Shown in pieces: positions 31,496 through 59,626 of a stretch of 64,000 bases of DNA. The notes under the pieces were generated by a model that saw only the letters and a program-made list of their open reading frames with translations, was not told the origin of the DNA and did not search any database. The stretch lies in sequence record SRR2962707_648; one strand, given 5' to 3'. Made by a program: the position numbers and the translations under genes. How positions within the stretch are numbered: the stretch's first letter is position 1; each line of letters begins with the position of its first letter.

Positions 31496-31617
31496 ACTCT
31501 ACCCTTTTCTAAATACATCACGGGGGGAAAGACTGAGCGATTCCATATAGAGAACAAAGTCACCCCAGATTAAAGCTGTAGACCCACCAAATCGAGACGA
31601 CTTAGTGGGTCCAGTTT

Positions 31618-32712
31618 CTAGCGGCCTGTCTTAATATTTGACCAAGCTCGAGTTAAAGAACGGTCAAATTTAGGCGTGTGTGCCACTTGAATGAAGAGCT
31701 TATCTTTCACCGCTTGTATTGGATAGATGCCTTTGTTTTCAGAGATTTCTGCATCTAACATAGGCGTTGCTGCCGTGTTCGGTACCGCGTAAAACACATA
31801 GTTGGACAAGGACGCAGCGACATCACCGCGTAGAATGTAGTTGATGTATTGCATTGCCGCTTCAGGATGAGGCGCATCCGCTGGAATGGCCATTAAATCA
31901 AACCACAGCAAGGTCCCTTCTTTAGGAATTGAGAAGCTGATGTTGACCCCTTGTCCTGCTTCTGCAGCACGATCTTTGGCTTGTAAAAGGTCGCCGTTAT
32001 ACCCTAATGCAACACAAATATCGCCATTCGCTAAATCGGAAATGTATTGACTAGAATGGAAGTATTTGTAGTACGGACGCGCCTCTGCAAGTACTTTGGC
32101 GCTGGCTTTTAGGTCACTCATGCTTTCTGAATTTGGGTCTTCGCCAATGTAATTATTAACAATCGACATGACTTCCGCAGGCGAGTCCAACACGGCAATA
32201 CCACAGTCTTGTAATTTGGCCGCCACTTCAGGTTTTAGCAGCATGTCCAAAGAATCTAGTTGGAAATCTTCACCTAGACGCGCTTTCACCATGTCTACGT
32301 TATAACCTATACCGACGGTTCCCCAAGCATAAGGCACGTTGTGCTTATTGCCTTCATCGTGACGGGCTACTTTGCCGGCCAATTGCTGATCGATATTTTT
32401 GTAGTTCGACAACTTACTTTTATCGATTGCTTGATACGCACCAGCCTTCACTTGGCGCTCGAAAAAAGAGTTAGAAGGAAACACCAAGTCATAACCTGAT
32501 GAGCCTGCCATCAATTTTGCTTCTAGTGCTTCGTTACTGTCGTATACATCATAATTCACCTTGATACCGGTCTCTTTCTCAAAATTCGCAACGGTATCTG
32601 GCGAGACGTAATCAGACCAATTATAAATATTCAGGACCTTATCTTCTGCCACAACGCTACCAGAGATAACGGCAGCGCAAACGGCTGATAAGCAAGCATG
32701 ACTAATTTTCAT
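31618..32712 (-). CDS. potF: Putrescine/polyamine-binding periplasmic protein
   Basis: LNIYNWSDY, PYAWGT and FHSSQYISDLANGD motifs; start moved to ATG 32712. Confidence 0.88.
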   Translation of the reverse strand: MKISHACLSAVCAAVISGSVVAEDKVLNIYNWSDYVSPDTVANFEKETGIKVNYDVYDSNEALEAKLMAGSSGYDLVFPSNSFFERQVKAGAYQAIDKSKLSNYKNIDQQLAGKVARHDEGNKHNVPYAWGTVGIGYNVDMVKARLGEDFQLDSLDMLLKPEVAAKLQDCGIAVLDSPAEVMSIVNNYIGEDPNSESMSDLKASAKVLAEARPYYKYFHSSQYISDLANGDICVALGYNGDLLQAKDRAAEAGQGVNISFSIPKEGTLLWFDLMAIPADAPHPEAAMQYINYILRGDVAASLSNYVFYAVPNTAATPMLDAEISENKGIYPIQAVKDKLFIQVAHTPKFDRSLTRAWSNIKTGR

Positions 32713-32866
32713 TCTGTGTTCCCCTTGGATTATAAATCCCGTGATAAATGACATTCTTTTGTGTTTTCTTAATGCCCTCATTGGGGCATTTTTATTGTAT
32801 TGCTTGTTATAATTTTATTGCTTCTAACGGAACTTTCTTGTGATGGTTTCTCGCTCTACTCTTTCG

Positions 32867-34201
32867 CTATAAATAGGCTTCGTACTCAACATCCGAAATA
32901 CGCCCATAAATTCTTTCTTGCTCTTGCGCTTTGACCGCACTGAATACTTTTACGAACGCATCGCCCAAATAATCGCGCATGAAACGGCTTTCTTTGAAAA
33001 CCTCGGTCGCCGCTTCCCAGCGGTTTGGCAATATTGGGAAATCGTCACTGACCGAGTAAGCATCGCCTTCGATTGGTGCTGGCGGCTCAAGCCCTCGCTC
33101 AATACCATCCAATGCACCGCCTAATACCGCAGCCAACACCAAGTAAGGGTTAGCATCAGCGCCTGCTACGCGATGTTCAATACGACGAGCAACCGTTGGG
33201 CTTTCAGGAATACGTACCGCAACAGTACGGTTCTCATAACCCCAGCTTGCAAACGTTGGCGCATGGGCCCCATTTTGAAAACGGCGATAAGAGTTAAGGT
33301 GTGGCGCCAATACCAACATACTGTCAGCCATATTAGCCAACAAGCCAGCCACTGCGTGCTTCAATAAAGGTGTCCCTTCTTCGCCACCATTATCAAAGAC
33401 ATTGACGCCGTCTTTATCGAGCAAGCTAAAGTGAACATGGAAACCATTACCGCTTTTTTGAGCGTATGGTTTCGCCATAAAGGTCGCACCGTATTCATAA
33501 TTGCGCGCTACGCCTTTTACCAAACGCTTAAACATATTGGCATGATCGGCGGCCAGCATGGCGTCGTCTACGTGCTTCATGTTGATTTCAAATTGGCCGG
33601 GGCCTAATTCTGAAATAATGGTGTCAGCAGGAATGCCTTGCACTTCACACGCACTTCGAACATCCGCAAAAAAGTTCGATAAGCCATCCATTTCTTCAAT
33701 TGAATAGCAATCCGTGTCCGTCAATCGACGACCATTGCCTTCTGTCATTAACGGCTCTTCTGGGCGTTGTTTTGCTTCAGATTCGCCATCTAATAGATAA
33801 AACTCTAATTCGGTTGCCACTACTGGGGTATAGCCAAGCGCTTTAAATCGTTCAACAATATTGGCTAAAATTTGGCGTGGATCAGGAAAGAAAGGTGTGC
33901 CGTCTGGGTTGTACATCATGGCAAGAATTTGGTCTCGCGGAGATTCAGACCAAGGAACCGGTATCGGTGTTGGATGAACGGGCAAACAAACGCCATCACT
34001 GTCACCCGTTTCAAACACTAAACCATTTTCTAAAACATCATCGCCCCAGTTATCAAAACCGATAACGGATTGAGGAAGTTTCACACCGTCTTTTAAAACC
34101 CCTTTCAAACCAGACGCCGGAATGCGTTTGCCTCGTAAGTTGCCATTTAAATCGGTAATAAAAAGATCGAATTCTTTATTGCTTGTTCCATGATCCGGCA
34201 T
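32867..34201 (-). CDS. puuA: Gamma-glutamylputrescine synthetase (glutamine synthetase-like, PuuA/PauA type)
   Basis: DLNGNLRGKR, ELEFYL, GPGQFE, ATFMAKP and RIEHRVAGADANPYL motifs; heads the potFGHI run. Confidence 0.8.
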   Translation of the reverse strand: MPDHGTSNKEFDLFITDLNGNLRGKRIPASGLKGVLKDGVKLPQSVIGFDNWGDDVLENGLVFETGDSDGVCLPVHPTPIPVPWSESPRDQILAMMYNPDGTPFFPDPRQILANIVERFKALGYTPVVATELEFYLLDGESEAKQRPEEPLMTEGNGRRLTDTDCYSIEEMDGLSNFFADVRSACEVQGIPADTIISELGPGQFEINMKHVDDAMLAADHANMFKRLVKGVARNYEYGATFMAKPYAQKSGNGFHVHFSLLDKDGVNVFDNGGEEGTPLLKHAVAGLLANMADSMLVLAPHLNSYRRFQNGAHAPTFASWGYENRTVAVRIPESPTVARRIEHRVAGADANPYLVLAAVLGGALDGIERGLEPPAPIEGDAYSVSDDFPILPNRWEAATEVFKESRFMRDYLGDAFVKVFSAVKAQEQERIYGRISDVEYEAYL

Positions 34202-34265
34202 AACCAGTACTCTCGTGATAATTTGTGTTACTTATTGTGTTATTTGCTCTAAAACGTCCAATCTC

Positions 34266-34281
34266 TTTTGTGATCACAAAA
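34266..34281. promoter_or_regulatory. Palindromic operator, probably for the adjacent GntR
   Basis: Perfect palindrome TTTTGTGATCACAAAA; partial copy TTGTGATCAAA at 34353-34363. Confidence 0.75.
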
Positions 34282-34432
34282 GAAATTTATATAATTTTCG
34301 ATAATCTTTGATTTTTCTTTTGAGCCGTATTATCAATATGAGCTAATCCATATTGTGATCAAACAATGACAGCCAGTTTTTTGCAAGAAAAAGGACGCTT
34401 TAACTCTATAATTTTTAGAAAAGGGCATTTAA

Positions 34433-35143
34433 TTGAACAATCCTTCACCTTTAGACATTACCTTAACCGACAGAAAGGACGGTGTAACTATCACCGAGTG
34501 GGTATATGAAGTATTACGCAATGCGGTTATGAGCGGTCAGATCCTGCCCGGAAGAAGCCTTACTATCCGCGAATTGGCTGCAGTACTTAATGTAAGCTCG
34601 ATGCCAATACGAGAGGCATTAAAAAAGCTTGGCACGGAGCGTGCGTTAGAAGTCAGGGAGAATCGCCGTATAATGGTGCCGAAAATGACGGCTATGAAGT
34701 TCAATGAATTGTGTGATACGCGGATTGCACTTGAGTCCCACGCGGCAGTCCGTGCCCTACCTTACATGACGGATACCCTATTAGAAGAGCTGCAAACACT
34801 GGATTTAGCGATTGATCACGCTCGTGCTATGAAAAACGCTGAAGCGACCATTCAGAGCAACCAAGCTTTTCATCGCCGCCTTTACTCTGCTAACCCTCAT
34901 CAGGTAAGCCTGCCATTGATCGAAAGCTTATGGTTACAACTCGGGCCCTTCTTACGCCTTGCCAACAGCCAGCTAGAAGAACACTACATTGTTGATCGCC
35001 ACCAAGAAGCCCTCTTAGCGATAAAAAACAAAGATACCTTAGCGCTGCAACTGGCCATCGCAGCAGACATTAGAGAAGGGATTGCTTTCGCTGGCACTCC
35101 AGAATTATTACATCAATTTATCGAAGCATCCTCTAATTCTTAA
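34433..35143 (+). CDS. GntR/FadR-family regulator (FCD domain)
   Basis: LTIRELAAVLNVSSMPIREAL HTH; NQAFH and HQEALLAI motifs. Confidence 0.9.
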   Translation: MNNPSPLDITLTDRKDGVTITEWVYEVLRNAVMSGQILPGRSLTIRELAAVLNVSSMPIREALKKLGTERALEVRENRRIMVPKMTAMKFNELCDTRIALESHAAVRALPYMTDTLLEELQTLDLAIDHARAMKNAEATIQSNQAFHRRLYSANPHQVSLPLIESLWLQLGPFLRLANSQLEEHYIVDRHQEALLAIKNKDTLALQLAIAADIREGIAFAGTPELLHQFIEASSNS

Positions 35144-36152: not shown

Positions 36153-36166
36153 GAAGGGAAAGAACA

Positions 36167-36194
36167 ACATTGGTGGCTTACTCGCCACCAATGT
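36167..36194. terminator. Stem-loop between convergent genes
   Basis: ACATTGGTGGC/GCCACCAATGT. Confidence 0.6.
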
Positions 36195-36223
36195 CACTCA
36201 TAGACAAAGCCATCAATACGAAC

Positions 36224-37396
36224 TTATTTCGCCACCGCTTGCTCTTGAGCTTTAAGCAGAGGCTCATAACGCTTATCCGTTAGTGTTTTCATAAAGGCAA
36301 CCAAGGCATCAATCTTACGCTCCGATAAGGCATGCGCCTTTAGATCTTCTTTGTCGACGGTTCCTGGTACTTCAGGAGCACGCCAAGGCTTGCCTGTTTC
36401 TGGGTTAATTGAACGCTTCGGGTTGTTATAATGATCGTAGAATTCCACCACGGTACGCAAATTTTTGAACACACCGTTGTGCATATAAGGCGCCGTTACC
36501 GCCACATTTCGTAACGATGGATTCTTGAATTTACCGTCGTATTTCGGATCTGTGACCGCTGGATTGTCCAACAAACCATGATCAATAAAATCGGCTTTCA
36601 AATGCCCTAACGCCAGCAACGCTGTGTTAGCAGGAACACCAATATTGCGGTATTGATGATTGGTAAAAGGCTCTTTCTCACTGTCTTCTGTTTTCAAGCG
36701 GTGGCAGCTGTTGCAGTTGACATTATTGTTAGAGAAAAAGAGTGTCCGACCTAAATCCTCCAATACCGTAAGCTGATATTCCCCTTTCAGGAATCGATCG
36801 TATTTGCTGTCGTAACTGCTAAAGGCTGCGGTGCTTTCAAACGCTTGCAGCGCCTTACCAAAGGCCGCATACGCAGGGGCAACGGTCCCCTCTTTCAATG
36901 CTTGATTGGCAAACACATTGGCACCATAAAGACGGGTGAAAGTCGCATGATAAAGTGGGTTTTGCTGTAGTTTTTTAACCACCTGCTCTTCATTCGATAA
37001 GCCCATTTCTACTGGATTCAATGGTGGGCCTAATGCTTGATCTGCCAATGAATTGGCCCGCCCATCCCAAAACTGTCCACCAACGTATTCTTTTAGCGCT
37101 TCATCAAAATGGAAATCAGGGGAAGTGCTTGCGTAAGCGGCCATCGGCGTATTGCGCGACCCCAGAGCATGCCCATCGTCGCCCAATGAGACAAAGCCAT
37201 TGGCGCGAGTAAGACGGTGGTCCGTAAAACCTTGATCAGGCGCATGACAGGTTGCACATGACATAGTGCCGTTCACAGAGAAGACAGGATCGAAAAACAG
37301 CACCTGCCCTAATTGTGCTTCAGTGAGACCTTCGCCCGCCACGACTTGGCTACTAATAAGCGATACGGCAACCAGAAAAACAAAATTCTTAATCAT
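36224..37396 (-). CDS. Di-heme cytochrome c peroxidase / MauG-family protein
   Basis: Signal peptide; CATCH and CNSCH heme sites; RNTP, GQFWDGRA, PPLNPVEMG and PSLRNVAVTAPYMHNG motifs. Confidence 0.9.
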   Translation of the reverse strand: MIKNFVFLVAVSLISSQVVAGEGLTEAQLGQVLFFDPVFSVNGTMSCATCHAPDQGFTDHRLTRANGFVSLGDDGHALGSRNTPMAAYASTSPDFHFDEALKEYVGGQFWDGRANSLADQALGPPLNPVEMGLSNEEQVVKKLQQNPLYHATFTRLYGANVFANQALKEGTVAPAYAAFGKALQAFESTAAFSSYDSKYDRFLKGEYQLTVLEDLGRTLFFSNNNVNCNSCHRLKTEDSEKEPFTNHQYRNIGVPANTALLALGHLKADFIDHGLLDNPAVTDPKYDGKFKNPSLRNVAVTAPYMHNGVFKNLRTVVEFYDHYNNPKRSINPETGKPWRAPEVPGTVDKEDLKAHALSERKIDALVAFMKTLTDKRYEPLLKAQEQAVAK

Positions 37397-38307
37397 TTTA
37401 ATGTCCGTCGGATACTTGAATAAATACTAAAAAATGGCTGCATTAAGAGCTTTCGCACACTGTCAAAGTGCCGTCTCTTACCGTCACCCAAACCAAAGCT
37501 ACGATCATCGGGCGCGTCTCTAGACACTTTAAGCGTGCCAAACAAGCCATCCCATATGGCTAGCGCACTGCCAAAGTTATGTCGCATATGGCGCCTTTGA
37601 TGATGAACTTGATGTTGTGCTGGCGAAATCAATACACGCTCTAACCAGCGCCCATAGCCTAAACGAATATGGCTATGGCGTAGGTTTCCTGTAAAAGCAA
37701 ACAAGCTCACAATGAACAAGTTGCCGCCCAACACCGTATACAGATTGACCCGAGCACCGAAACAGAAAATAAACACCCCAGTTACCATGCCAGCAACCAC
37801 CGCATGACGCAGTGCAAAGAGGATATTTTCCAGCGGGTGCAATCGATAAAAAGTCAGTGGGTTCAACGCTTCAGCGCTATGATGAACCTGATGGATTTTC
37901 CATAACCAAGGGTTACTGTGCATCCAGCGGTGCAAGGCATAGCGACTTAAGTCTTCCAGCACAAACAGACTCAAGGTATAAAGCAACACAATGTCTCGGT
38001 AGTACCAAGGCAGAAACAGAGGGTCAGCAACCGCATTCAAGGCACTTAACGTCCATAACGCCACCGTCTGTCCCGACAGTAACACCGGCAAAATCAGCAG
38101 TGTCTTGATCAACCAATTAACCAAGAAATAGCGATAGTCTAATCTCGCATCAAGACTCCACCAATATCGTTTTAGCTGTACCCAAGACAAGGTATTACCC
38201 TGCCTTACGTACCACACCAATGCGATGATGGCGCTGACCAATAAATAGCCCCAAAAGACCCGCTCACTGCCGTTTAAAAAAGCCTCTAACGGTGAACTAA
38301 TCGCCAT
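37393..38307 (-). CDS. Sterol desaturase / fatty-acid hydroxylase superfamily membrane di-iron enzyme
   Basis: His boxes HRWMH, HQVHH, HSH and HQVHH; NFG...IWDGLFGT motif. Confidence 0.88.
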   Translation of the reverse strand: MAISSPLEAFLNGSERVFWGYLLVSAIIALVWYVRQGNTLSWVQLKRYWWSLDARLDYRYFLVNWLIKTLLILPVLLSGQTVALWTLSALNAVADPLFLPWYYRDIVLLYTLSLFVLEDLSRYALHRWMHSNPWLWKIHQVHHSAEALNPLTFYRLHPLENILFALRHAVVAGMVTGVFIFCFGARVNLYTVLGGNLFIVSLFAFTGNLRHSHIRLGYGRWLERVLISPAQHQVHHQRRHMRHNFGSALAIWDGLFGTLKVSRDAPDDRSFGLGDGKRRHFDSVRKLLMQPFFSIYSSIRRTLK

Positions 38308-39283
38308 CAGCGTCGATCAGAGTCGCGGTCACACCGATACTGCCAACCAATTGACGGTAAAAGGCTTTCTGTAAATCCAACAAGCCTTGAAACAAAGGAA
38401 TCATGTCACCTGTGTTGTAATTGTGCTCCGCCGGTGCGCCTTGATACGCCACCCAAGAAGCCGTGAGCGCCTCTTGAACCGCAGCCATGCCTTCCTCGCC
38501 GTGTTTTGCATACACTATGGTGGCGACATTCGGCTGCTGATCGTCAGCAAGAAGCTGCTTATTGGTTTCTAAAATCGCGCCAATAAAGCCCCATGACGCT
38601 TTGCTGTAAGGGTATTGTTGATGCTCAGGCTTTGGTTGACCCAGTGTGGCCTTCGTCAAACCACTGATTTGCGCAATGCGCCAATCACGGGTTTTATAAA
38701 TGTTTTCGATTTCTGCGTTGATCAACAAAGACAAGGCTTTATCGTGATCATCAAGGAAGTCGGCACGGTGCTCTTGGTAACCATCACGCACCTGAGTCAA
38801 GCGCTTACAAACGTTCGAACTAATGACCTCGGCCATTTCTTTGCGACGCTCTGTCCAAGGGCCGCTGAACATAACATCGTCCAATGCGCCCAAGGTTTTA
38901 TAAGAGTTTTTATACAAGGCTTTGGAGGCGGCAAGATCCCCCTTCATGATGCGACCTAGGCTTTCATGAATGTCTTCTTTGCCCATGTGGAAATAATCCA
39001 CCATCAAGGGATAGTCCATCGCGTCCATGTCATACGCACCTAGAATATAGCTCGCCTGTACACGCCCCCAACCTTCTGTCAGTTGCGCAAAAGCCTGATG
39101 CCGCTGCTCACTCGATGGGTTGTCTAGTGCCTGTTTTAGATCTCCACAATAGGTCACCGCATTGTTCGCGTTCGCCTGAATAACAGTGTCATAAATAACC
39201 GCATAAGGGTCTTGTTCTGCCGCTTGGCTCAGCGCAGGAGCGCCCAGCAGTAGCATGAGTGACAGACCAGTAAAAGCTTTCAT
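38297..39283 (-). CDS. Imelysin-like periplasmic protein with a degenerate motif
   Basis: Signal peptide; helical; KTLGALDDVMF in place of the GxHxxE motif; ends DADGD, typical of the second imelysin in such clusters. Confidence 0.7.
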   Translation of the reverse strand: MKAFTGLSLMLLLGAPALSQAAEQDPYAVIYDTVIQANANNAVTYCGDLKQALDNPSSEQRHQAFAQLTEGWGRVQASYILGAYDMDAMDYPLMVDYFHMGKEDIHESLGRIMKGDLAASKALYKNSYKTLGALDDVMFSGPWTERRKEMAEVISSNVCKRLTQVRDGYQEHRADFLDDHDKALSLLINAEIENIYKTRDWRIAQISGLTKATLGQPKPEHQQYPYSKASWGFIGAILETNKQLLADDQQPNVATIVYAKHGEEGMAAVQEALTASWVAYQGAPAEHNYNTGDMIPLFQGLLDLQKAFYRQLVGSIGVTATLIDADGD

Positions 39284-40692
39284 AGTTGCTCCAGAAAATG
39301 TAGCAAGGCCGCACGCTGAGCGCGACCCAGTTCAATAAATGTCGATTTGGCGGCTTGTGCCTCACCACCATGCCAGAGAATCGCTTCTTCTGGCGTTGCT
39401 GCCCGAGCATCGTGCAAAAAGCGCTCTCCTGCACGAACACGACCACCTATCCCCCACAAAGGGGCGGTACGATACTCGCGCTCACTGGCCAAAAACTCCG
39501 GCCGTCCATCTTTTAGCGATGCGCCCATGTCATGAAGCAACAGGTCGCTGTAGGGGTGAAAGACTTGGCCTTTCTCAGTCGTTAATGTTGACCGATGGCA
39601 ACCGCCACACCCCGCCTCATGAAAGAGCTTTTGCCCTTTTTGAGCTTCCTCATCCAGAGCAACAGGTTGTGGCACTTTATGGCCACGAATGTAGGCAGCT
39701 ATGGCTTGTAATCGGAACTCAGGAAGATCCAAAAGGCCATGGGGTGATTGCCGTCCACGGGGCGCTGCTAAGCAATCCAACTGCGCAGGTTGACACAACT
39801 CTTCAGGGTAAGCTGGGTTGGTTAAACCAAGGTCATGGGCTGCCGCATTGGCGGATTGGTTGACAATACTAGCTTCCGACGCCTTCCAATTAAAGCGTCC
39901 CAATACTTTTTGTTGCTGTTCTGGTGGATTTAACCAATTCGGGCGCCCACTAATGCCATCGCCATTGCTATCTGATGGGTCCGCCCAGGCTAAAATCTCA
40001 CTCTCTGGCACTTGCTCCAGTAAGCCCAAGCCAACCAACGCGGGAGGCTGGCGTAAGGAAATTACCGTATCATCCGCTAACGGGCCATAAGCCAATTGAT
40101 CTAAATAAGGGTCAAATTTAGACAAGAGAATGGTTTGCCCATCTGGGTAGGTAAAAGGCAGCGATTCAATGCGCAACCGAGTACGCGCTTCAGGTAGCAC
40201 TTTGCCATTACCGTTAATGGCGACCTGCACCCCATACACTGGGTCCGGCACGCTGTCGTGCGCCGGTGCATCGATATTGTTTAACTGCCAACGTAACCCA
40301 TGCTTACTTGGCTGGGTCAATTTAAACACCAGCGAGCGCAACGGCTGCCCATCTTTACTGAGGGTCGGCGCACCACCGCTGTCCACATGACAACTGGTAC
40401 AGGTATTGGCATTGAAATGAGGGCCTAAACCATCACGTGCCGTTGTGGCACTGGGGGCCTCCACCCAAGGAATAGAAAAAAAGGAGCGACCGAGAATAAA
40501 CTGATCGTATTCAGCGTCTGTCATGTTTCGCGGTTGCGAAAAAGGCTTGCTGCTTTTTGAATTAGTAAACAACTCGCTATCAGCAGTACCAGACATTTCA
40601 GTCGCGGCGCTGTGAACCAAACTAGGCCATATTAGAAACACAAAAGCGCCTCGAAAAATCCTTTTCGCGACGCGTCGACCGTTACTTTTCAT
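39280..40692 (-). CDS. Di-heme oxidoreductase (DHOR/DUF1111 family)
   Basis: RDGLGPHFNANTCTSCH, GLGLLE, DGISGRPN, GRFNWKA, CGGCH, SDLLLHDMG, RTAPLWG and LHDARA...EAILWHGGEA motifs. Confidence 0.88.
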   Translation of the reverse strand: MKSNGRRVAKRIFRGAFVFLIWPSLVHSAATEMSGTADSELFTNSKSSKPFSQPRNMTDAEYDQFILGRSFFSIPWVEAPSATTARDGLGPHFNANTCTSCHVDSGGAPTLSKDGQPLRSLVFKLTQPSKHGLRWQLNNIDAPAHDSVPDPVYGVQVAINGNGKVLPEARTRLRIESLPFTYPDGQTILLSKFDPYLDQLAYGPLADDTVISLRQPPALVGLGLLEQVPESEILAWADPSDSNGDGISGRPNWLNPPEQQQKVLGRFNWKASEASIVNQSANAAAHDLGLTNPAYPEELCQPAQLDCLAAPRGRQSPHGLLDLPEFRLQAIAAYIRGHKVPQPVALDEEAQKGQKLFHEAGCGGCHRSTLTTEKGQVFHPYSDLLLHDMGASLKDGRPEFLASEREYRTAPLWGIGGRVRAGERFLHDARAATPEEAILWHGGEAQAAKSTFIELGRAQRAALLHFLEQL

Positions 40693-40735
40693 AGTTCTCT
40701 ATTTTGACTAGTTCGAACCCATTAAAAAAGAAAGA

Positions 40736-40769
40736 CACGTTACCTTATTTCACACTATAAGGTAACGTG
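40736..40769 (-). terminator. Intra-cluster stem-loop after the imelysin gene
   Basis: 13-bp perfect stem CACGTTACCTTAT/ATAAGGTAACGTG, then TCTTTCTTTTTT on the minus strand. Confidence 0.7.
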
Positions 40770-40799
40770 CTCCTATCCGCTTATTGCCTATTGCTTGAC

Positions 40800-42128
40800 T
40801 TAGATCTGAGTTTCTTCAGCGTCTGTTACATCATTCGTAGTCAATGAAATACCGTAAGCGTTCGCAACATTCACCATTTGGTCACCCAAACGACGAAGTT
40901 CATTTTTCAAGGTAACAATGTTCTGTACGCTGGCTTCGTTTTCTGGGTGAATCTGGTAATCAAAATGCATCGTTGTTGTCGCCAATTTGTTGATCTTAGC
41001 GATGCGCATTTCAATGTCAGCCATCAATGCTTTGATCTTCGCTTGCTCTTCAGTTGGCAAGTTGTCAAAGAAAGCTGGTCCGACTTTTTTGCCTTTGTAC
41101 TCGCCCATCAAGACGTTTTTGATGCCTTGGTAGTTCAAGTCAATGTCACGGTGAGTATTGTCAGAGAAACAAGAATGCTCATCTTCTTCACTTGGCGTTA
41201 ATACGGCTACCGCAATACGCTCATTGGCCAATTCAGATTTAGAGAACACACCCATTGCAGAGAAAATCTGTTTCAAAGACGTCGCTGTTGCGATGTTTTT
41301 GTCTTTTTCAGCGCCCGTCAATTGATCCAATAAAGCGGCACGGTAAAGGCCGTTATTGCCGATCACCTTGGTATTCCACGCGCTAGACACTTTGGCTAGG
41401 TCGTAAACCAACTTGTCTGTTGCCGCTCTTAGGTAATCCAAGCGACGTTGCTTCAATTTGTCTGTTGTAAAATCAGACAATGGACGCTGGCCTGCGGTCA
41501 TTGGGCCGTGCGTGATCTTGTCTTCGATCATGTTGTTGTAGTCTTGATCTTGGCCCCACAACAAAAACTCAATGGCGTGGTAACCACTTGCTACGTTGGC
41601 GTCACCGCCATTTTCGTTTAATTCAGTGAGCACTTCAGGGGTGATCTTGGCCACATTTACTGGCTCTGCGTCTTCACCACCTGGAGTAAATACCCCTTTC
41701 GTATCAATGATATTGCCACTGGTACGCTGGTAGTTTGCGTCTTCCGTGTAGTCAATTAGGTTTTCATCCAACGGCCAAGCGTTGATCTGACCTTCTAATC
41801 CACCGTAAGCTTCTGCTACCCAGCCATCTTCTGCATCGATAGGGCCGTTAGATAGACGGAAAATTTCTGTTGTTCCGTAGCTTTCACGAGAGGCTAACCA
41901 AGCATTTTTTGCGGCTTGTAAGGTTTCTGCTGTTGGGTTTTTCGCAAAGGTATCAATCGCGACTTTAAGGGCTTTCGCACCTTCTAATGCGTCTTGATAG
42001 TTCGCTGTCGCAATCGTTGCATAAGTGTTCAAGGTGGCACGTTGCACACTCTGAGAGACGGCAGACATCGCTGGCAAAGAAAAGCTAAGTGTAGCGCCTA
42101 CGATGAGGGTATTTAGAATCGTTCTCAC
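40800..42128 (-). CDS. Imelysin (peptidase M75) family iron-regulated protein, IrpA/IcmP-like
   Basis: INAWPLDE, SGYHAIEFLLWGQD (GxHxxE), ELANER and EDEHSCFSDNT motifs; signal peptide; GTG start after GGAG. Confidence 0.92.
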   Translation of the reverse strand: MRTILNTLIVGATLSFSLPAMSAVSQSVQRATLNTYATIATANYQDALEGAKALKVAIDTFAKNPTAETLQAAKNAWLASRESYGTTEIFRLSNGPIDAEDGWVAEAYGGLEGQINAWPLDENLIDYTEDANYQRTSGNIIDTKGVFTPGGEDAEPVNVAKITPEVLTELNENGGDANVASGYHAIEFLLWGQDQDYNNMIEDKITHGPMTAGQRPLSDFTTDKLKQRRLDYLRAATDKLVYDLAKVSSAWNTKVIGNNGLYRAALLDQLTGAEKDKNIATATSLKQIFSAMGVFSKSELANERIAVAVLTPSEEDEHSCFSDNTHRDIDLNYQGIKNVLMGEYKGKKVGPAFFDNLPTEEQAKIKALMADIEMRIAKINKLATTTMHFDYQIHPENEASVQNIVTLKNELRRLGDQMVNVANAYGISLTTNDVTDAEETQI

Positions 42129-42207
42129 TATTATTTACTCCTAATGTGTTTTTTTTAAAATAGCGGATCTACCCTAATGCTAGGGCAAACCCTGATCATC
42201 CATTGTA

Positions 42208-43083
42208 TTAATGCGTTTCTGTTGCCGTTTCTAATCTCTGTGTGCGCTGTGGTCGCCCACGCAATTGCCATCTAAGTACCAAGAGTACCAACACCCAATA
42301 AATGGCAACCATAACCAAATCCCAACCAATAGGCTGTGAGCGATAAGCAAAAAGCGACGCCAACAAACCACCAAATACAGAACTGTCACTCAGCACACCA
42401 GACACATCCCATACTGTGCTGTACAGCCAAGCTGGTAAATCTGTTGCCGCCAGTGGGCCACCTAATAATTTGCCCGCGGCGGTTAAAAAGAGGGCTGAGC
42501 CCAAGAAAAGCAACATGGTTTCCGTGACTCGGAAAAACCATTTCCAAGAAATGTATTTGCCGCCAATTTGCAGCAAGAAGAACAGAATCATTGCCAGCGC
42601 CAAACCAATGGCCGCCGCCACAAAGAAGTTCACATAGGAGCCAAACGAGTCCAGCTGCAACAAGGAGCCATAAAGAAACATAACGGTTTCAGAACCTTCA
42701 CGCCCAACCGCGATCATCGCCAGGAAGAACACTCCCCACCAGTTGGAGGATTTGGCGCTTTCTTCTAGCCCACTTTCAAGGTCTTTTTTCATCGTGCGGC
42801 CATGGGCACGCATCCACATCACCATCTGCACAATCAATGCACTGGCAAACGTCAGCATGCCGATTTCAAACCAATCGCGACCAGCTCCACCTAAAATATC
42901 GGTCACTCCGATCAAAGTAAGCGTCAGCAAACCCGCCAGAGCAAACCCGCCTAATATCCCAGCCAACAACCAAATTTTTCCTTGTCGCGCGTCTGGGCGG
43001 CCATTCATCCAGGCGTATAAAATTCCTATCACTAAGAGCGCTTCCACACTCTCACGACAAACAACAAAAATAATCTGTCCCAT
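42208..43083 (-). CDS. FTR1-family iron permease (FtrC/EfeU-like)
   Basis: Two RExxE motifs (RESVE, REGSE); about 7 TM segments. Confidence 0.92.
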   Translation of the reverse strand: MGQIIFVVCRESVEALLVIGILYAWMNGRPDARQGKIWLLAGILGGFALAGLLTLTLIGVTDILGGAGRDWFEIGMLTFASALIVQMVMWMRAHGRTMKKDLESGLEESAKSSNWWGVFFLAMIAVGREGSETVMFLYGSLLQLDSFGSYVNFFVAAAIGLALAMILFFLLQIGGKYISWKWFFRVTETMLLFLGSALFLTAAGKLLGGPLAATDLPAWLYSTVWDVSGVLSDSSVFGGLLASLFAYRSQPIGWDLVMVAIYWVLVLLVLRWQLRGRPQRTQRLETATETH

Positions 43084-43086
43084 TGT

Positions 43087-43503
43087 TTAATCCTGAGCCT
43101 TAACAGTAATTTTTCCGCGAGCAGTCGGTGCAAAATCGTCGTAATAATCATACGAGCCAACATCCAATGGCGTAATAACCAGGCTGGTATTCGCGCCCAT
43201 AAACAATACTTTTTCTTGGCGCAGCTGGTTACTTTCAAACTCTGCTGGCTTGCTGCCAATGTTTTTTACCACTAGGCGGAATCTCGTTTTAGCAGGAACA
43301 ATCAACTCCGCAGGAATCAACTCACCGTCTTTAATTTCAATCAGGTAAGTGGGTAATTTAGTATAACGAGGGTCATGTATTTGCTGACTGAAGCCATTAG
43401 CATCCTTTTGAGTGCTACTTTGAGAGCCACCCTCTGCTGCCCACACTTTCATTGTCGTCAGGGCAAAAAACAGGGAAAGAAAGAAAATACCGATCAACTT
43501 CAT
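43087..43503 (-). CDS. Periplasmic cupredoxin-domain protein (FtrB-like)
   Basis: Signal peptide from ATG 43503; PAELIVPA, PAEFES..L..EKV and GSYDYYDDF motifs. Confidence 0.82.
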   Translation of the reverse strand: MKLIGIFFLSLFFALTTMKVWAAEGGSQSSTQKDANGFSQQIHDPRYTKLPTYLIEIKDGELIPAELIVPAKTRFRLVVKNIGSKPAEFESNQLRQEKVLFMGANTSLVITPLDVGSYDYYDDFAPTARGKITVKAQD

Positions 43504-43689
43504 TGAAAACATCCAGCCATAATAGATTAAGCAATTGGAGCAGATACGACGAACTCGCCCCTTCCTTACGTTTAGCCAACGCATTTACGAATCCAATGCG
43601 TTAGTTTGATACCGTTCGTGCATGCTTCTCATTGCGTTATTTGAAAAAGCACAAGCACACACGTTAATGTCGGTTTAAAACATCTTAAC

Positions 43690-43708
43690 AAGAACGCTTC
43701 TCATATTC
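43690..43708 (-). promoter_or_regulatory. Candidate Fur box for the iron cluster
   Basis: Minus strand GAATATGAGAAGCGTTCTT, 12/19 to GATAATGATAATCATTATC by my count. Confidence 0.45.
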
Positions 43709-43803
43709 ATTATTTTTTGTGCATTTGGTCGTATTCTAATGAAAAAATTTTCGATCGATAACCTATCACAACGCAATCACAACGCTTTTGTCACTGACTC
43801 AAG

Positions 43804-43850
43804 GCAAAATCCAGTAGACAAGAAGCAAAATCCAGTAGACAAGAAGCAAA
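43804..43850. repeat. 21-bp tandem duplication
   Basis: GCAAAATCCAGTAGACAAGAA twice exactly, plus GCAAA. Confidence 0.9.
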
Positions 43851-44074: not shown

Positions 44075-45562
44075 TTATAGACGAATCCACACGTTTTTCA
44101 CTTCGGTGTATTTTTCCATCGCATGAAGCGATTTATCACGACCATTACCAGACGCTTTAACACCACCAAATGGCACGGTTGAATCACCATCTCCCCAAGT
44201 ATTTACCCATACCATTCCGCTTTCTAATTGGCGGCTAACACGATGAGCACGTGACAAATTGCTTGTCCAAATAGCAGCGCCTAAGCCATATTTAGAATCG
44301 TTCGCCAAGGCAACACCTTCTTCTTCTGTCTCAAAGGTGGCAACCGCAAGCACAGGACCGAAAATTTCTTCTCGTACAAATTCCATGCTGTTTTTCGCGT
44401 CAGCAAAGATCGTTGGTTTTGCGTAAAAGCCTTTCCCTTGTTGATACTCAGGTACGCCACCATGCACCAATGTCGCGCCGTCCGCTTGCGCACTATTGAT
44501 AAAGCGCGTAACGGTATCAAGCTGAGTCTTGTCTACCATTGGCCCCATATTGGTTGCCGGATTCAATGGATCTCCCGCCACATAGCCTTTCGCCGCTTCT
44601 ATCAAGGCCACCATAAATTTGTCTTTAATGCCGCTTTGCACGTACAAACGAGAGCAAGCAATGCAAACTTCGCCTTGATTGGTAAAAATAGACGACGCCG
44701 CGCCTTTTGCCGCCGCAGTAATGTCTTCGCAGTCGTCAAACACCAAACAAGGGGATTTGCCACCAGCTTCAATCCAGACACGCTTCAAGTTCGATTGACC
44801 TGAATATTCCATCAACATGCCAGCGACGCGACTTGAACCAGTGAAGGCGATGACCTGTACGTCATTATGCAAAGCAAGCGCTTTACCGGCAGTATGACCA
44901 AAGCCTGGCAGAACGTTAAAGACACCATCTGGCACACCCGCTTGTGTTGCTAGTTCAGCCAAACGCAACACACTTAATGGTGATTTTTCAGACGGTTTTA
45001 AAATCACGCTATTGCCCGCAGCAAGCGCTGGCGCCACTTTCCAAGAGGCCATCATCAAGGGGTAATTCCACGGTGTAATCGCCGCAATCACGCCAATAGG
45101 CTCATGGCTGATCAACGCAAGATTTGGCCCACTTGTTGGTGCGATTTCACCGTACAGTTTGTCTATGCCTTCTGCCGTCCAGCGGAAGCAATCTATGGAA
45201 TCTGGAATATCAATGCCGACCATTTCAGAAATGGATTTGCCCATGTCTAAAGTGTCTAGCAGCGCAAATTCGTCTTTATGCTCTTCAATCAATTGCGCCC
45301 ATTTAAGCATGATGTTTTTTCGCTCACGGGGAGCCATGGTTGACCACACGCCACTTTTAAAGGCTTTTTTTGCCGCCGCAACCGCCACATCCACATCCGC
45401 GCTATCACAACTGGCCACCTTGGTGAGCAGGGTTTCCGTGGTGGGGTTAATGCAGTCAAAGGTCTCGCCGCTCACGGCAGGAACAAACTCACCATTAATA
45501 TACGCCTGACTTGGAAAAGAAAGGGAGGCGGCCTGCGCTTTCCATTGTTCGTAACTATTCAT
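44075..45562 (-). CDS. puuC: Aldehyde dehydrogenase, PuuC-like
   Basis: PWNYP, KPSEKSPLS, FTGS, EAGGKS, NQGEVC, EEIFGP and GNGRDKSLHA motifs; polyamine gene context. Confidence 0.8.
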   Translation of the reverse strand: MNSYEQWKAQAASLSFPSQAYINGEFVPAVSGETFDCINPTTETLLTKVASCDSADVDVAVAAAKKAFKSGVWSTMAPRERKNIMLKWAQLIEEHKDEFALLDTLDMGKSISEMVGIDIPDSIDCFRWTAEGIDKLYGEIAPTSGPNLALISHEPIGVIAAITPWNYPLMMASWKVAPALAAGNSVILKPSEKSPLSVLRLAELATQAGVPDGVFNVLPGFGHTAGKALALHNDVQVIAFTGSSRVAGMLMEYSGQSNLKRVWIEAGGKSPCLVFDDCEDITAAAKGAASSIFTNQGEVCIACSRLYVQSGIKDKFMVALIEAAKGYVAGDPLNPATNMGPMVDKTQLDTVTRFINSAQADGATLVHGGVPEYQQGKGFYAKPTIFADAKNSMEFVREEIFGPVLAVATFETEEEGVALANDSKYGLGAAIWTSNLSRAHRVSRQLESGMVWVNTWGDGDSTVPFGGVKASGNGRDKSLHAMEKYTEVKNVWIRL

Positions 45563-45779
45563 GATAATTTCCTTGAGTAAATCGTCGAATATTAGGAGAC
45601 TTTCTTATTCTGCAAAACGACGTATAAAAGATACTGCCAAGCTACAAAATCCACACTGAGAAAACCATATCCCCAAGGTGGTACAAAGCATAAGTTCACC
45701 CGCTACTATACTGTGCCCTGACTAGGAGGATACATCACACAGGTAAAACACAGCCCAGTTCGCGCGGGGGTGGTTGCTC

Positions 45780-46682
45780 CTATTGAGAGGGTGGCACACA
45801 TTGCTGGATCTTTTCAATCAACCACTGGATGCTTTCTTGGCTATCGTAAAGTTGGTGTGAAAAAATGCTCAGCGACAGTTCAGGCACACCTTTCGGCAAC
45901 AACACTGTTCGCACCGGCAACATGGCCGTTAACTCTTTGGCAATATTCGCCGGCACACACATCAAGCTGTCCGACTTGGCGGCGACCATGCCACCAATCG
46001 CATAACTCTGCACTATCATCGAAATTTGTCTCGATTGATGTTGCTCTATCAACCATTGATCGATGGGGTCCGCGCCTGAGTTAACCAGTGGCAAATGAAT
46101 GTGCGGTGTCGCTAAAAAAGCATGCAGACTAAGCTGATCTGGCAAGCTGTGCCCTTCTCGCACAATACCTACGTATTGATCCGTTAACCAATGCTGACGA
46201 TGGTAATACCTTGGCACAGACTGCAAGTTATCGACCCCTAGAAAAAGATCTAAGCGCCCTTCTTCAACTCGATCCATGCGCAAATTCTCCGGCAAGATAT
46301 CAATGGCGATGCGGATATTAGGCGCCTCCTCTTGCAACCGACTCGCCAGCTTAGGCAAGGCATAAAACTCAAAATAATCGACCGCGCCAATGTAAAAGGT
46401 TTTGGCTTCAGTGCGCGGATTAAAAGGCTTCACTTTATTAAACGCCAAATCCAATGCACTCAGCCCTTTGCGCACATCTGGGATCAACGCCAGGGCTGTT
46501 GGCGTTGGCTCCATGCCTAATTTGGTTTTAACAAACAAGGGGTCATCGAAACGGGTCCGTAGCTTTGCCAATACATGACTTGCCGCAGACTGACTCAAAT
46601 GCAAGGTCTTGGCTGCGCGTGACAAACTTCGTTCACGCTCCAGCACCACGAGCAAACGTAGCTGGCTGATGTCTATGTCCAT
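45780..46682 (-). CDS. LysR-family regulator
   Basis: SLSRAAKTLHLSQSAASHVLAKLR..FDDPLFV; divergent from aguBA. Confidence 0.92.
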   Translation of the reverse strand: MDIDISQLRLLVVLERERSLSRAAKTLHLSQSAASHVLAKLRTRFDDPLFVKTKLGMEPTPTALALIPDVRKGLSALDLAFNKVKPFNPRTEAKTFYIGAVDYFEFYALPKLASRLQEEAPNIRIAIDILPENLRMDRVEEGRLDLFLGVDNLQSVPRYYHRQHWLTDQYVGIVREGHSLPDQLSLHAFLATPHIHLPLVNSGADPIDQWLIEQHQSRQISMIVQSYAIGGMVAAKSDSLMCVPANIAKELTAMLPVRTVLLPKGVPELSLSIFSHQLYDSQESIQWLIEKIQQCVPPSQ

Positions 46683-46848
46683 AGGTTATCGAAATCTCTC
46701 ATATAACAAACGAAATATTACATTTCCATAATAACCTAATTCCGCGTACAAATAAGATATTGTTATACTAGCGCCACAGAGGCATGCCCTGCTGGGCATA
46801 TTGATGACACACAATCCACTAACATCATCGACGAAAGAGACAGATGCT

Positions 46849-47736
46849 ATGAGAAAAGTAACGGTTGCAGCGACCCAAATGGCGTGTTCTTGGAACATTG
46901 AAGAAAACCTAGACACGGCTGAGCGCTTAGTAAGGCAAGCAGCAGAACAAGGTGCGCAAATTATTCTGCTGCAAGAGTTGTTCGAAACCCCTTACTTTTG
47001 CATCGAGATCAGCGAGTCTTATCACGCCCTAGCCACTACGCTAGAGAGCAACGTCGCCTTTAAGCGTCTTTCTGCGCTGGCCAAAGAACTCGAAGTCGTG
47101 CTGCCATTTAGCTGGTTCGAAAAAGCCGGTAACGTGCGTTACAACACAGTGGCCATGATCGATGCCGACGGCAGCTTAATGGGCACTTACCGCAAGACAC
47201 ACATTCCAGACAGCGATGGCTATCTAGAAAAATACTACTTTAGCCCTGGCGATACCGGCTTTAAAGTGTGGGAAACCCGCTACGCCAAAATTGGCGTAGG
47301 CATCTGCTGGGATCAATGGTTCCCAGAGACGGCTCGCAGTATGGCATTGCAAGGCGCAGAACTTTTGTTCTTCCCAACCGCCATCGGCAGTGAGCCAAGC
47401 CAGCCAGAATTAGACAGCCAACCACATTGGCAACGTGTCATGCAGGGGCATGCGGCCGCTAACCAAACTCCCGTCATCGCGTCTAACCGCATTGGCACCG
47501 AGAACGCAAAATACCGCGACTTGTCTTTGACCTTCTATGGCTCGTCTTTTATTACCGACGACACAGGGGCAAAAGTTGCCGAAGCGGATCGCACAACCGA
47601 AGGAGTATTGGTGCATGAATTCGATTTAGCGCATTTGGAATTCCAACGCCAAGCATGGGGCTTGTATCGCGATCGTCGCCCAACCCATTACCAAACCCTT
47701 CAAACACTGGATGGAAAAACGCCGGCAAACTCGTAA
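46849..47736 (+). CDS. aguB: N-carbamoylputrescine amidase
   Basis: Nitrilase-fold triad motifs QELF, YRKTHIP and ICWDQWFPE; PTAIGSEP; start moved to ATG 46849. Confidence 0.93.
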   Translation: MRKVTVAATQMACSWNIEENLDTAERLVRQAAEQGAQIILLQELFETPYFCIEISESYHALATTLESNVAFKRLSALAKELEVVLPFSWFEKAGNVRYNTVAMIDADGSLMGTYRKTHIPDSDGYLEKYYFSPGDTGFKVWETRYAKIGVGICWDQWFPETARSMALQGAELLFFPTAIGSEPSQPELDSQPHWQRVMQGHAAANQTPVIASNRIGTENAKYRDLSLTFYGSSFITDDTGAKVAEADRTTEGVLVHEFDLAHLEFQRQAWGLYRDRRPTHYQTLQTLDGKTPANS

Positions 47737-47785
47737 CTCCGGTGAATTTGATAATTCCATTAGCGAGTAAAAAATAGGACTGATT

Positions 47786-48880
47786 ATGAGCAATAAACTG
47801 GACTCAACACCAAAACAAGATGGCTTTCGTATGCCGGGTGAACACGAACCCCAAGAACAGGTTTGGCTTGCTTGGCCAATACGAGGGGATAATTGGCGAG
47901 AGTCTGGTAAACCCGCTCAACAGGCCTTTACCGCAGTGGCTTTGGCCATTGCTCAATCTGCCCAAGTGATTGTCGTAGTGCCTAATAGCCATTACGACAT
48001 TGCCCGCCAATCTCTCGACGAGCACATTCGTGTGCTTGAAATCCCTTATAACGATTGCTGGATGCGCGACATCGGCGGTTCTTATGTGGTGAACAACAAG
48101 GGCGAACGCCGAGCCGTAAGCTGGCAGTTTAATGCGTGGGGAGGCGAGCTGGCTGGCCTGTATTCGCCATGGGATTTAGACGATGCCATGGCGCCTCAAA
48201 TGGCCAACATCACGTGTGACGACTATTACCAAGCGCCGCTTTTCTTAGAAGGCGGTTCCATTCATTGCGATGGCGAAGGCACCCTATACACCACAGAAGA
48301 ATGCTTACTGCACCCTAGCCGTAACCCAGACTTAAGCAAGCAAGAAATCGAGACACTGTTAGACAATTACTTGAGCATCAAAAAAGTAGTTTGGTTAAAA
48401 GACGGTTTGTTTAACGATGAAACCAACGGCCACATAGACAACATTCTGCACGTAATTCGCCCAGGCGTTGTTGCGCTCACTTGGTGTGACGATAAAAACG
48501 ACCCTCAATATGCCATCAGCCGTGCCGCCTATGACGTACTAAGCCAAACGACGGACGCCCAAGGCCGTGCCATTGAGGTCATTAAGCTGCCAATGCCTGG
48601 CCCGCTTTATATGAGCGAAACAGAAAGCCAAGGCATTCAACAAACAGAGACCATGGAACGACACGCAGGAGAGCGATTGGCCGCGTCTTATGCGAACTTT
48701 CTGATTAGTAATCAGAGTGTTATCTTTCCCTTATTGGACACAAAAACCGATCCGCAGGCACAACAGATCCTAGCCAGCGCTTTCCCTAACCATACGCTCA
48801 TTGGGGTACCGGCCAGAGAGATTCTCCTAGGCGGCGGTAACATTCACTGCATCACTCAGCAGGTTCCTAAGCGCCTTTAG
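47786..48880 (+). CDS. aguA: Agmatine deiminase
   Basis: FRMPGE, WMRD, LEGGS, ETNGHID and GGGNIHCITQQ motifs. Confidence 0.95.
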   Translation: MSNKLDSTPKQDGFRMPGEHEPQEQVWLAWPIRGDNWRESGKPAQQAFTAVALAIAQSAQVIVVVPNSHYDIARQSLDEHIRVLEIPYNDCWMRDIGGSYVVNNKGERRAVSWQFNAWGGELAGLYSPWDLDDAMAPQMANITCDDYYQAPLFLEGGSIHCDGEGTLYTTEECLLHPSRNPDLSKQEIETLLDNYLSIKKVVWLKDGLFNDETNGHIDNILHVIRPGVVALTWCDDKNDPQYAISRAAYDVLSQTTDAQGRAIEVIKLPMPGPLYMSETESQGIQQTETMERHAGERLAASYANFLISNQSVIFPLLDTKTDPQAQQILASAFPNHTLIGVPAREILLGGGNIHCITQQVPKRL

Positions 48881-56955: not shown

Positions 56956-57368
56956 GATGATTTCCTATAATTCCTTTAATAAGGTCTAGCCAGTGTTCCC
57001 AGATAAAACTGTTTATAACAACTACTTCCGTAGGTAGCGTTTCAATTCCTACTGAAAAGTTACTTAAGCAAAACAGCTGAAGTTAAGGTTATAGGAAGGC
57101 CTCTATCGATGTAAAGAAAAGGTCATTAATAAGCATGAAAAATAAGCATATTTCAAAAATTCAGCCTTTCCATGAACAATTTCCCACAAAAAGCATCATA
57201 AAAATCCATATTTCAAATGCCATTAATAAACAATAGAACGCACCAGTAAGCCTAGCCGAGCGCCTTAATAGCTTGAAAAACCGAGTAACGGTAAGCAACT
57301 TAGCGCCAATGCCTCAATTCACTTTTAAAGCTAAATTGACCAAATATGTAGAGAATGTGTAGCTTTAT

Positions 57369-57387
57369 ATTGATAATGATTATCAAT
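57369..57387. promoter_or_regulatory. Fur box
   Basis: ATTGATAATGATTATCAAT, a near-perfect 7-1-7 inverted repeat about 50 bp upstream of the receptor. Confidence 0.92.
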
Positions 57388-57438
57388 AGCAATATTATTA
57401 GCAATAAATCACATTAATTTACAAAATGAGGCGTTTCC

Positions 57439-59559: not shown

Positions 59560-59580
59560 TACCTTCCCTAGCCTAAAATC

Positions 59581-59610
59581 AAAAGGCATCTTAATGAAGA
59601 TGCCTTTTTT
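59581..59610. terminator. Bidirectional terminator
   Basis: AAAAGGCATCTT/AAGATGCCTTTT. Confidence 0.8.
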
Positions 59611-59626
59611 CTCCCTACAAAACGAC

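Follow-up and report, generated by a model that had tools for sequence, protein, structure and literature searches.

Several described bacterial systems contain parts of the locus analysed here. In the FtrABCD/FtrAPBCD systems of Brucella, Bordetella, Burkholderia and Rubrivivax, as presented in PMC11966278, an FtrB-type cupredoxin and an FtrC-type permease are encoded together with FtrA/P19 and FtrD. EfeUOB/EfeUOBM, in the accounts of PMC9174327 and PMC3143127, is an iron operon that unites FTR1, a cupredoxin domain, an imelysin fold and a haem peroxidase. The icmP cluster (PA4370-PA4373 in P. aeruginosa, VC1264-1266 in V. cholerae), which Xu et al. describe as Fur-regulated and without an inner-membrane permease (PMC3143127), has the order imelysin - DHOR/DUF1111 - IPPA-type imelysin. 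In Synechococcus PCC 7942 an FTR1 permease is proposed to act in iron uptake together with an IrpA protein and a c-type cytochrome (PMC9080828). According to these sources the imelysin-DUF1111-imelysin trio (PMC3143127), FtrBC (PMC11966278) and the proposal joining IrpAB to Ftr1 (PMC9080828) are already known. We analysed a 64,000-nucleotide stretch from sequence record SRR2962707_648 (the window), in which a seven-gene cluster at 36224-43503 consists of two modules: an FtrB/FtrC pair and a five-gene cassette of imelysin, DHOR, IPPA-fold protein, His-box membrane protein and di-haem enzyme. We found no paper on the version of the cassette with His-box and MauG-like enzymes, or on its union with ftrBC, in a search that covered subscription journals thinly.

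By the defining features of those systems the cluster is neither EfeUOB nor FtrABCD; it probably works like both. It has the cupredoxin and permease of FtrABCD in the same order, but its operon lacks FtrA/P19 and FtrD and is joined to five other genes. With EfeUOB it shares the outline given above, with c-type di-haem proteins instead of the b-type Dyp. The order imelysin - DHOR - IPPA-type protein is that of the icmP cluster, but DUF1513 is replaced by a His-box membrane enzyme and a MauG-like enzyme, the imelysin, about 35% identical to icmP-type proteins from the same genus, is without a lipobox Cys, and an inner-membrane permease is present. The Synechococcus IrpAB-Ftr1-SomB1 system differs in being only co-regulated and in having been proposed as reductive, and we found no FtrB, His-box or MauG-like partner described for it in PMC9080828. 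The reading we favour, at slightly under an even chance, is that the importer is interchangeable, FtrBC in this case, and receives protein-bound Fe3+ that the cassette makes from periplasmic iron.

Composition of the cluster

Seven co-oriented open reading frames (ORFs) lie on the minus strand, and their Pfam profile matches bear out the domains given by an earlier note made from the sequence alone. In transcription order they encode an FtrB-type cupredoxin (43087-43503; Cupredoxin_1 PF13473; 138 residues with a signal peptide), an FtrC-derived FTR1 permease (42208-43083; FTR1 PF03239), an IcmP-family imelysin (40800-42128; Peptidase_M75 PF09375; 442 residues from a GTG start, with a signal peptide), a DHOR (DUF1111) di-haem c protein (39280-40692; PF06537; CxxCH at 98 and 362), an IPPA/PA4372-type imelysin-fold protein (38297-39283; no Pfam match), a fatty-acid-hydroxylase-superfamily membrane protein with His boxes (37393-38307; FA_hydroxylase PF04116) and a MauG-clade di-haem enzyme (36224-37396; CCP_MauG). 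The cupredoxin start was placed at 43503 because homologues align from that position. The intergenic gaps are 3, 79, 107, -4, -11 and -4 nucleotides, so that the last four genes overlap by 4-11 nucleotides, as the note had seen. This order is kept in 22 of 31 imelysin-anchored genome loci and is conserved across Marinomonas, Psychromonas and Rhodobacteraceae; all seven proteins are 99-100% identical to those of a Marinomonas arenicola record (L005), the nearest named one. Here and below, L-numbers denote loci, G-numbers genomes and X-numbers RNA runs used in the comparison.

The motifs already remarked on are present and conserved: two RExxE in the permease (RESVE, REGSE), GYHAIE in the imelysin and the His boxes, together with two CxxCH motifs in each haem protein. 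Five of the seven products have signal-peptide-like N-termini, judged by eye, with no Cys within the first 35 residues, and therefore look like soluble periplasmic proteins. The cluster does lack P19, FtrD and Dyp genes, and its reading as an iron-uptake locus is upheld.

The FtrB and FtrC module

The only strong solved relative of the cupredoxin is 8VUK (E 1.9e-20), which is Brucella FtrB (PMC11966278). Equivalents of Glu84/86/93, the iron-site Glu triad, and of Asp118 are kept, as are both RExxE motifs of the permease. The equivalent of His121 is Ala here, and A, S, Q or D in all 22 cluster cupredoxins taken from genomes, whereas 14 of 15 ordinary FtrB proteins keep the histidine, among them all 8 without a P19 match nearby. 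According to PMC11966278, the Brucella FtrB H121A variant bound copper but did not oxidise Fe2+. Since the histidine that Brucella FtrB requires for Fe2+ oxidation is lost, the FtrB of the cluster probably depends on an oxidant from elsewhere.

About 80 proteins, identical to the permease at 57% or more, form its subclade; the next proteins, at about 50%, are Burkholderia FTR1 (among the best 120 of 549 matches). In the FTR1 tree it groups with P19/FtrD-linked FtrC, on a separate branch from the EfeU of L140, and the NCBIfam EfeU model NF041756 scores 116.5 on it against a cut-off of 255. The same NCBIfam scan gave no EfeO model match among the cluster proteins. Of 5 cluster genomes searched for P19, 4 were without it; G001, the nearest genome, carries a cupredoxin-FTR1-P19 locus apart from the cluster. 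No FtrD was found among the seven genes or their flanks, the extent of the search for it, which was not made genome-wide. No Dyp was found in G063 or G064, and G001 and G054 hold only a short, unlinked Dyp (control G058 positive). FeoB occurs in 3 of 5 genomes, with no pattern.

Several variant FTR1 loci came to light in these searches. At L015:8865-9730 the FTR1 gene was matched in two frames and is broken or carries a sequencing error. A second, divergent cupredoxin-FTR1-P19 locus is found in 5 of 62 Marinomonas-family genomes (L138:6107-7813, L141:4975-7787), followed in two genomes by an RnfD/NqrB-like gene instead of FtrD. In Vibrio campbellii (L171:5032-8988) P19, cupredoxin, FTR1, M75 and Dyp genes are consecutive, a natural FtrABC/EfeOB hybrid.

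Imelysin, DHOR and the IPPA-fold protein

Among solved structures the imelysin matched IcmP (7XRX, E 9e-62); EfeO, EfeM and Algp7 gave no match at E<=1, and a real EfeO from a related genome did not align (best E 0.043). It carries the GYHAIE and EEDEH motifs and five invariant Trp. The Pfam-negative gene, which the earlier note had called a degenerate imelysin, does have an imelysin fold: its AlphaFold model (predicted local distance difference test, pLDDT, 86.9) was matched by Foldseek to IPPA (3PF0) with a TM of 0.75. This protein is without the His of GxHxxE, ends in DADGD and has two invariant Trp; its relatives carry PF09375. No close solved structure was found for DHOR.

A complex model of imelysin with DHOR scored 0.62, the best of three controls scoring 0.00. 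Of 78 solved complexes 51 reach the mark used for such models, as do 2 of 108 mismatches; this calibration set, unlike our model, did not include haem, and our own alignments were not fed in. The runs share at least 51% of contacts and the partners have pLDDT of at least 85. The predicted contact places DHOR residues 53-96, just ahead of the first CxxCH, against imelysin residues 302-316 beside EEDEH. Interface residues are near-invariant within the subtype and are altered on both partners in icmP-type clusters. No solved complex resembling this one was found. The model supports binding between the two proteins, and Xu et al. report natural imelysin-DUF1111 fusions (PMC3143127). Metal is bound at acidic sites of the imelysin fold in EfeM and Algp7, according to PMC9174327; by analogy, their metal-site loops may correspond to the EEDEH region of the imelysin.

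The His-box membrane enzyme and the MauG-clade enzyme

In the His-box protein H126, H130, H139, H142, H143, H157, H211, H232, H235 and H236 are invariant in 18 of 18 sequences; no solved structure was found for it. The genus of L010 has a third imelysin-DHOR type (L182-L185, about 8840-10070), with a related His-box gene (35-38%) divergently just upstream and no IPPA or DUF1513 match adjoining. The His-box enzyme is a fixed partner in the cassette with intact metal ligands. Our guess is that, standing in for FtrD/DUF1513, it may modify lipids or carry out a redox step at the inner membrane.

The product of the last gene matches Paracoccus MauG with 343 bits and scores 140 to 6NX0 and 119 to 6E1C, which we take to be BthA and MbnH, and 58-82 to classical peroxidases. 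Like Paracoccus denitrificans MauG, to which it is 47% identical over its full length, it has the His/Tyr six-coordinate haem, the distal pocket and the Ca site: equivalents of Tyr294, Glu113, Gln103, Met114 and His280 are found in all 92 aligned rows, a count that includes duplicates, and Pro107 and the Ca-site residues are also kept. Unlike MauG, it is without Trp199, found among these rows only in MauG itself, and has no mau genes nearby. The sixth ligand of the electron-transfer haem in classical bacterial peroxidases is Met or His (bioRxiv 10.1101/2020.04.03.015982); with Tyr as haem ligand in all 92 rows, a classical cytochrome c peroxidase was ruled out. The label "di-heme peroxidase" thus stands as to the di-haem CCP_MauG family and fails as to the classical peroxidase. 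A maturase of tryptophan tryptophylquinone (TTQ) for methylamine dehydrogenase was also ruled out, there being no mauA in 4 of 4 genomes (control record positive); a search for mauB, which had no positive control, was set aside.

In a tree that included one true MauG, the Paracoccus denitrificans protein (L169) nests among enzymes from icmP-type clusters (L150-L156; ultrafast bootstrap, UFBoot, 95 and 92). In a 401-genome sample, 9 of the 11 closest relatives lie near imelysin, DHOR or DUF1513 genes, as against none of the next 9. A second, distant CCP_MauG gene with changed Ca-site residues directly follows the cluster at L018:16069-17406.

Distribution of the cassette and its inheritance with ftrBC

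All five cassette genes are complete in 30 of the 31 genome loci found through the imelysin, the remaining one being cut by a contig end, and cupredoxin-FTR1 is directly upstream of the cassette in 22 of them. In metagenome loci (80 kept of 114) the cassette is common, mostly without ftrBC; the relatives of one metagenome IPPA protein were named Arcobacteraceae and Sulfurimonadaceae. Grouping 77 full-length imelysins at 90% gave 52 clusters, a sample that leans to close relatives. In 9 of the 52 the cassette adjoins a FutA/FbpA-type ferric ATP-binding cassette (ABC) importer (binding protein E 3e-101 to 2PT1), which in 8 of the 9 lies within 15 nucleotides on the same strand, the cassette coming first. 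Both importers found with the cassette, FTR1 and FutA/FbpA, take Fe3+. Two other neighbouring transporters were dismissed as partners: the ABC transporter beside L028-L030 was discounted as a ferric importer, its best match being 4R72, presumably the sugar-phosphate protein AfuA, and the NRAMP gene near L031, with grpE and DUF441 between, was treated as incidental.

In FTR1-anchored genome searches the FtrC subclade was only ever found beside the cassette. It occurs in 4 of 62 Marinomonas-family genomes and in 11 of 42 from the L010 genus, where all 11 FTR1 genes are 140-320 nucleotides from the cassette imelysin; in wider samples it was found in 1 of 401 and 1 of 400 genomes, both of them the search centres. 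In the imelysin tree the seven-gene loci fall into a single clade (support 0.905), and the FTR1 tree gives the same grouping (FastTree and IQ-TREE). The simplest reading is a single graft of ftrBC onto the cassette, followed by transfer as one unit. Because kin are not independent, the distribution counts stand for few events.

Among the 62 Marinomonas-family genomes, 4 have the cluster subtype, 55 another imelysin, 3 none and 0 both. In all 20 of the 55 other-imelysin genomes whose loci were inspected, imelysin-DHOR is followed by two genes, which were imelysin and DUF1513 in 2 loci scanned, with DUF1513 in a third locus too; no FTR1 over the cut-off was found in these 55 genomes. The 42 genomes of the L010 genus divide into 13 with the subtype, 18 with another imelysin and 11 with none, at one match per genome, and DUF1513 was not matched in any of the 8 cassette genomes searched (control G023 positive). 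Since cluster genomes hold a single imelysin match, the cluster appears to be an alternative to the icmP cluster, replacing it within genomes. The icmP-type imelysin itself is preceded by a conserved Pfam-negative gene of 190 residues at L122:7567-8139 and in most of L118-L137.

Proposed working and rival explanations

In the scheme we favour, the locus would be an iron-repressed operon in which ftrBC was grafted once onto a widespread five-gene periplasmic cassette, the graft then spreading as a unit between Gamma- and Alphaproteobacteria. The imelysin would bind iron in its acidic GxHxxE/EEDEH cleft, as the metal sites of EfeM/Algp7 suggest. DHOR, predicted to dock by its haem-1 end at this cleft, would take an electron and convert Fe2+ to Fe3+, and the MauG-type His/Tyr enzyme would be the terminal oxidant, spending H2O2 in the role of the Dyp peroxidase EfeB in EfeUOB. 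FtrB, with its Glu triad kept and its copper His lost, would then pass Fe3+ on to the RExxE motifs of FtrC, and a second adaptor is the probable role of the IPPA-fold protein. We infer every electron and iron transfer step in this scheme. The earlier proposal that the two di-haem proteins perform the iron redox step feeding FTR1 gains support from the loss of the FtrB His and from the imelysin-DHOR model; the direction of that step is conjectural. In PMC11966278, Ftr1p is said to move only Fe3+ made by an oxidase. A bolder version, which we hold tentatively and consider rather less probable, has an imelysin-DHOR heterodimer act as a haem-based iron oxidoreductase, with a MauG-type bis-Fe(IV) enzyme driving it at the cost of H2O2 and FtrB as a copper-free shuttle; this would be a third way to power FTR1, beside copper oxidases (Fet3p, FtrA/FtrB) and Dyp (EfeB). 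If true, iron handling would be the ancestral job of the MauG clade, from which the Paracoccus TTQ maturase was recruited.

Imelysin/IrpA and DHOR (DUF1111) are widespread and iron-regulated in pathogens and marine bacteria, and their biochemistry is described in PMC3143127 as not known. Their link here to a permease with measurable uptake makes the part of each cassette gene testable by deletion. The oxidase driving bacterial FtrC is still an open question in PMC11966278, and a natural FtrB without the copper His offers a direct test. The cluster also hints at what the closest non-TTQ relatives of MauG do.

Several observations weigh against the favoured scheme. The cassette does not need ftrBC: of the 38 imelysin clusters (out of 52) with at least 2.5 kb upstream, the other 14 being set aside for short flanks, 12 have ftrBC, 3 another permease and 23 no permease within 4 kb. 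The haem proteins are therefore not dedicated FTR1 subunits. L008 lies inside the seven-gene clade without ftrBC, and no FTR1 was found in its genome, which by its position in the tree would be a loss of ftrBC. The loss of His121 across cluster FtrB is a single evolutionary event, five divergent P19-linked cupredoxins and L187 are also without its equivalent, and the invariant Met102 of the cupredoxin could serve as a new copper ligand replacing His. The bridging Trp93 of MauG varies among the aligned rows (W/L/H/Y/V), 7 of 44 blind neighbouring gene pairs also reach the complex-model mark, and no RNA contig among those listed, a set apart from 37 further pieces, bridges imelysin and DHOR. Two imelysins studied by Xu et al. 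bound neither ferric iron nor haem (PMC3143127), and the IrpAB-Ftr1 system of cyanobacteria was proposed as reductive rather than oxidative (PMC9080828).

Some of these points bear on other explanations. The two modules might be co-regulated neighbours only, a self-sufficient ftrBC sharing an iron-repressed promoter with a cassette that does a separate iron-starvation job such as peroxide control or envelope remodelling. Stand-alone cupredoxin-FTR1 pairs without a P19/FtrD match do exist (L170, L173, L175, L176, L188, L190-192), the cassette mostly occurs without ftrBC, hairpins flank the imelysin gene, and a Leptospira imelysin-DHOR operon is reported to rise under H2O2 (bioRxiv 10.1101/2020.04.03.015982). 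We nevertheless regard co-regulation alone as unlikely: 8 stand-alone FtrB proteins keep the His that all cluster FtrB have lost, the FtrC subclade was never alone in genome searches, and in other lineages the cassette lies hard against a second, unrelated ferric importer. The importers found beside the cassette, of the FTR1 and FutA/FbpA types, take Fe3+ and so count against reductive mobilisation, in which DHOR would reduce chelated or colloidal Fe3+ on the imelysin, the His-box enzyme would link to a cytoplasmic reductant, the MauG-like enzyme would remove H2O2, stopping Fenton chemistry, and FtrBC would import the released iron. An FtrB without the oxidase His would leave that Fe2+ without an oxidant, and we know of no haem wire across the membrane for His-box enzymes. 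Marine iron is mostly ferric and ligand-bound, which favours reduction, as do the description by Xu et al. of the EfeB step as a reduction (PMC3143127), the proposal of SomB1-IrpAB-Ftr1 in Synechococcus as a reductive system (PMC9080828) and the turnover of H2O2 by BthA, a MauG relative (PMC6405878). Taken together, we think this explanation distinctly unlikely.

MauG oxidises residues of a partner protein to form TTQ, and MbnH acts so on MbnP; the MauG-like enzyme might likewise build a metal site by oxidising a small ligand or a residue of a partner protein. The retained bis-Fe(IV) pocket (Y294, E113, Q103 and M114 in every aligned row), the invariant Trp residues of the imelysin and the IPPA-fold protein, and the nesting of Paracoccus MauG among relatives from imelysin clusters would all fit. 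Trp199, whose position we confirmed and which we take to be the relay to the protein substrate, is confined to MauG itself and Trp93 varies, so that a maturase seems improbable to us. The suggestion of the earlier note that cupredoxin and imelysin are the halves of a split EfeO, working with an EfeU-like permease, starts from adjacent genes that do carry both Pfam domains of EfeO. As descent it is wrong, because the cupredoxin is FtrB-like (22% to real EfeO) and the imelysin is IcmP-like, without an EfeO alignment. With the permease also of another subfamily by its EfeU score, and with DHOR as the predicted partner of the imelysin, we give a split EfeO very little credence.

Promoter, hairpins and RNA evidence

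Upstream of the cupredoxin gene, on the minus strand, a candidate promoter/operator at 43682-43718 has an extended -10 (TG at 43690-43689, hexamer at 43687-43682); a Fur-like site overlaps its spacer and -35 region. The TG-n-hexamer at 43690-43682 is kept in 4 of 4 Marinomonas loci, and the footprint 43686-43718 keeps 27-28 of 30 bases in 3 other Marinomonas loci, against a window median of 15. The Fur-like box that the note had marked therefore stands as a conserved footprint and is weak as a Fur match: it scores 13/19 to the Fur consensus, and 21 window positions reach at least 13, so the raw match was rejected as evidence. It ranks 85th by a home-made genus matrix, which was seeded with the same consensus and is therefore not independent. 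Within 400 nucleotides, 16 of 17 gammaproteobacterial upstream regions reach Fur matches of 12-15/19, and L016 reaches 11. Fur control of the cluster is plausible, on a match that is weak in the window. Of 7 aligned Rhodobacteraceae upstream regions, 6 have an NGA-N9-TCR motif after the -35/-10; none of the regions beat shuffles in matching the IscR-gamma consensus (29-192 of 200 were as good). A sigma-70 scan found 8 sites, with 10.1 expected. A 21-nucleotide direct duplication lies upstream of the promoter, at about 43805-43848.

Three hairpins were found on the minus strand. The one between FTR1 and imelysin (42165-42192; z -3.4) also occurs in L002 and L016 and is not clear in L001, L004, L017 and L022. 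The one after the imelysin gene, with a U-tract (40735-40770; z -3.6), has strong counterparts in 6 of 7 other loci folded and is likely a partial terminator or stabiliser. The terminator-like hairpin at the operon end (36162-36199; z -4.35) precedes a convergent LuxR-type gene.

In metatranscriptome runs X4 and X5, from one study, contig cover is confined to 38376-43674, the flanks having none; no weight attaches to the missing cover of the 3' genes. The contigs bridge cupredoxin-FTR1 (X5), FTR1-imelysin and DHOR-IPPA (both), and show neither strand, a single transcript nor a transcription start. The hairpin between FTR1 and imelysin is bridged by contigs 40718-42496 and 40760-42389, whose ends at 40718 (X4) and 40760 (X5) lie around the post-imelysin hairpin; the upstream ends, at 43666 (X4) and 43674 (X5), are just past the TG-n-hexamer. 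In runs X2 and X3, which may contain DNA, the flanks are covered as well (28 and 23 of 30 bins). The FTR1 and imelysin parts, which the earlier note would have had to give up as one system if separate, co-occur, are inherited together and are bridged by RNA contigs.

Genomic surroundings

On either side of the cluster (29373-35143 and 44075-48880) lie what we take to be genes for putrescine and agmatine uptake and breakdown; the scan of flank genes covered Aldedh, GntR and LuxR only. These flanks are kept in L001, L002 and L005 and not in L016. Further along the window, a strong Fur-like site (17/19) at 57366-57396 stands ahead of genes at 57439-63965 that read like a TonB-dependent receptor with siderophore ABC genes. 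At L001:7816-8104 the 3' end of the aldehyde dehydrogenase gene is repeated three more times, with 104-nucleotide spacing.

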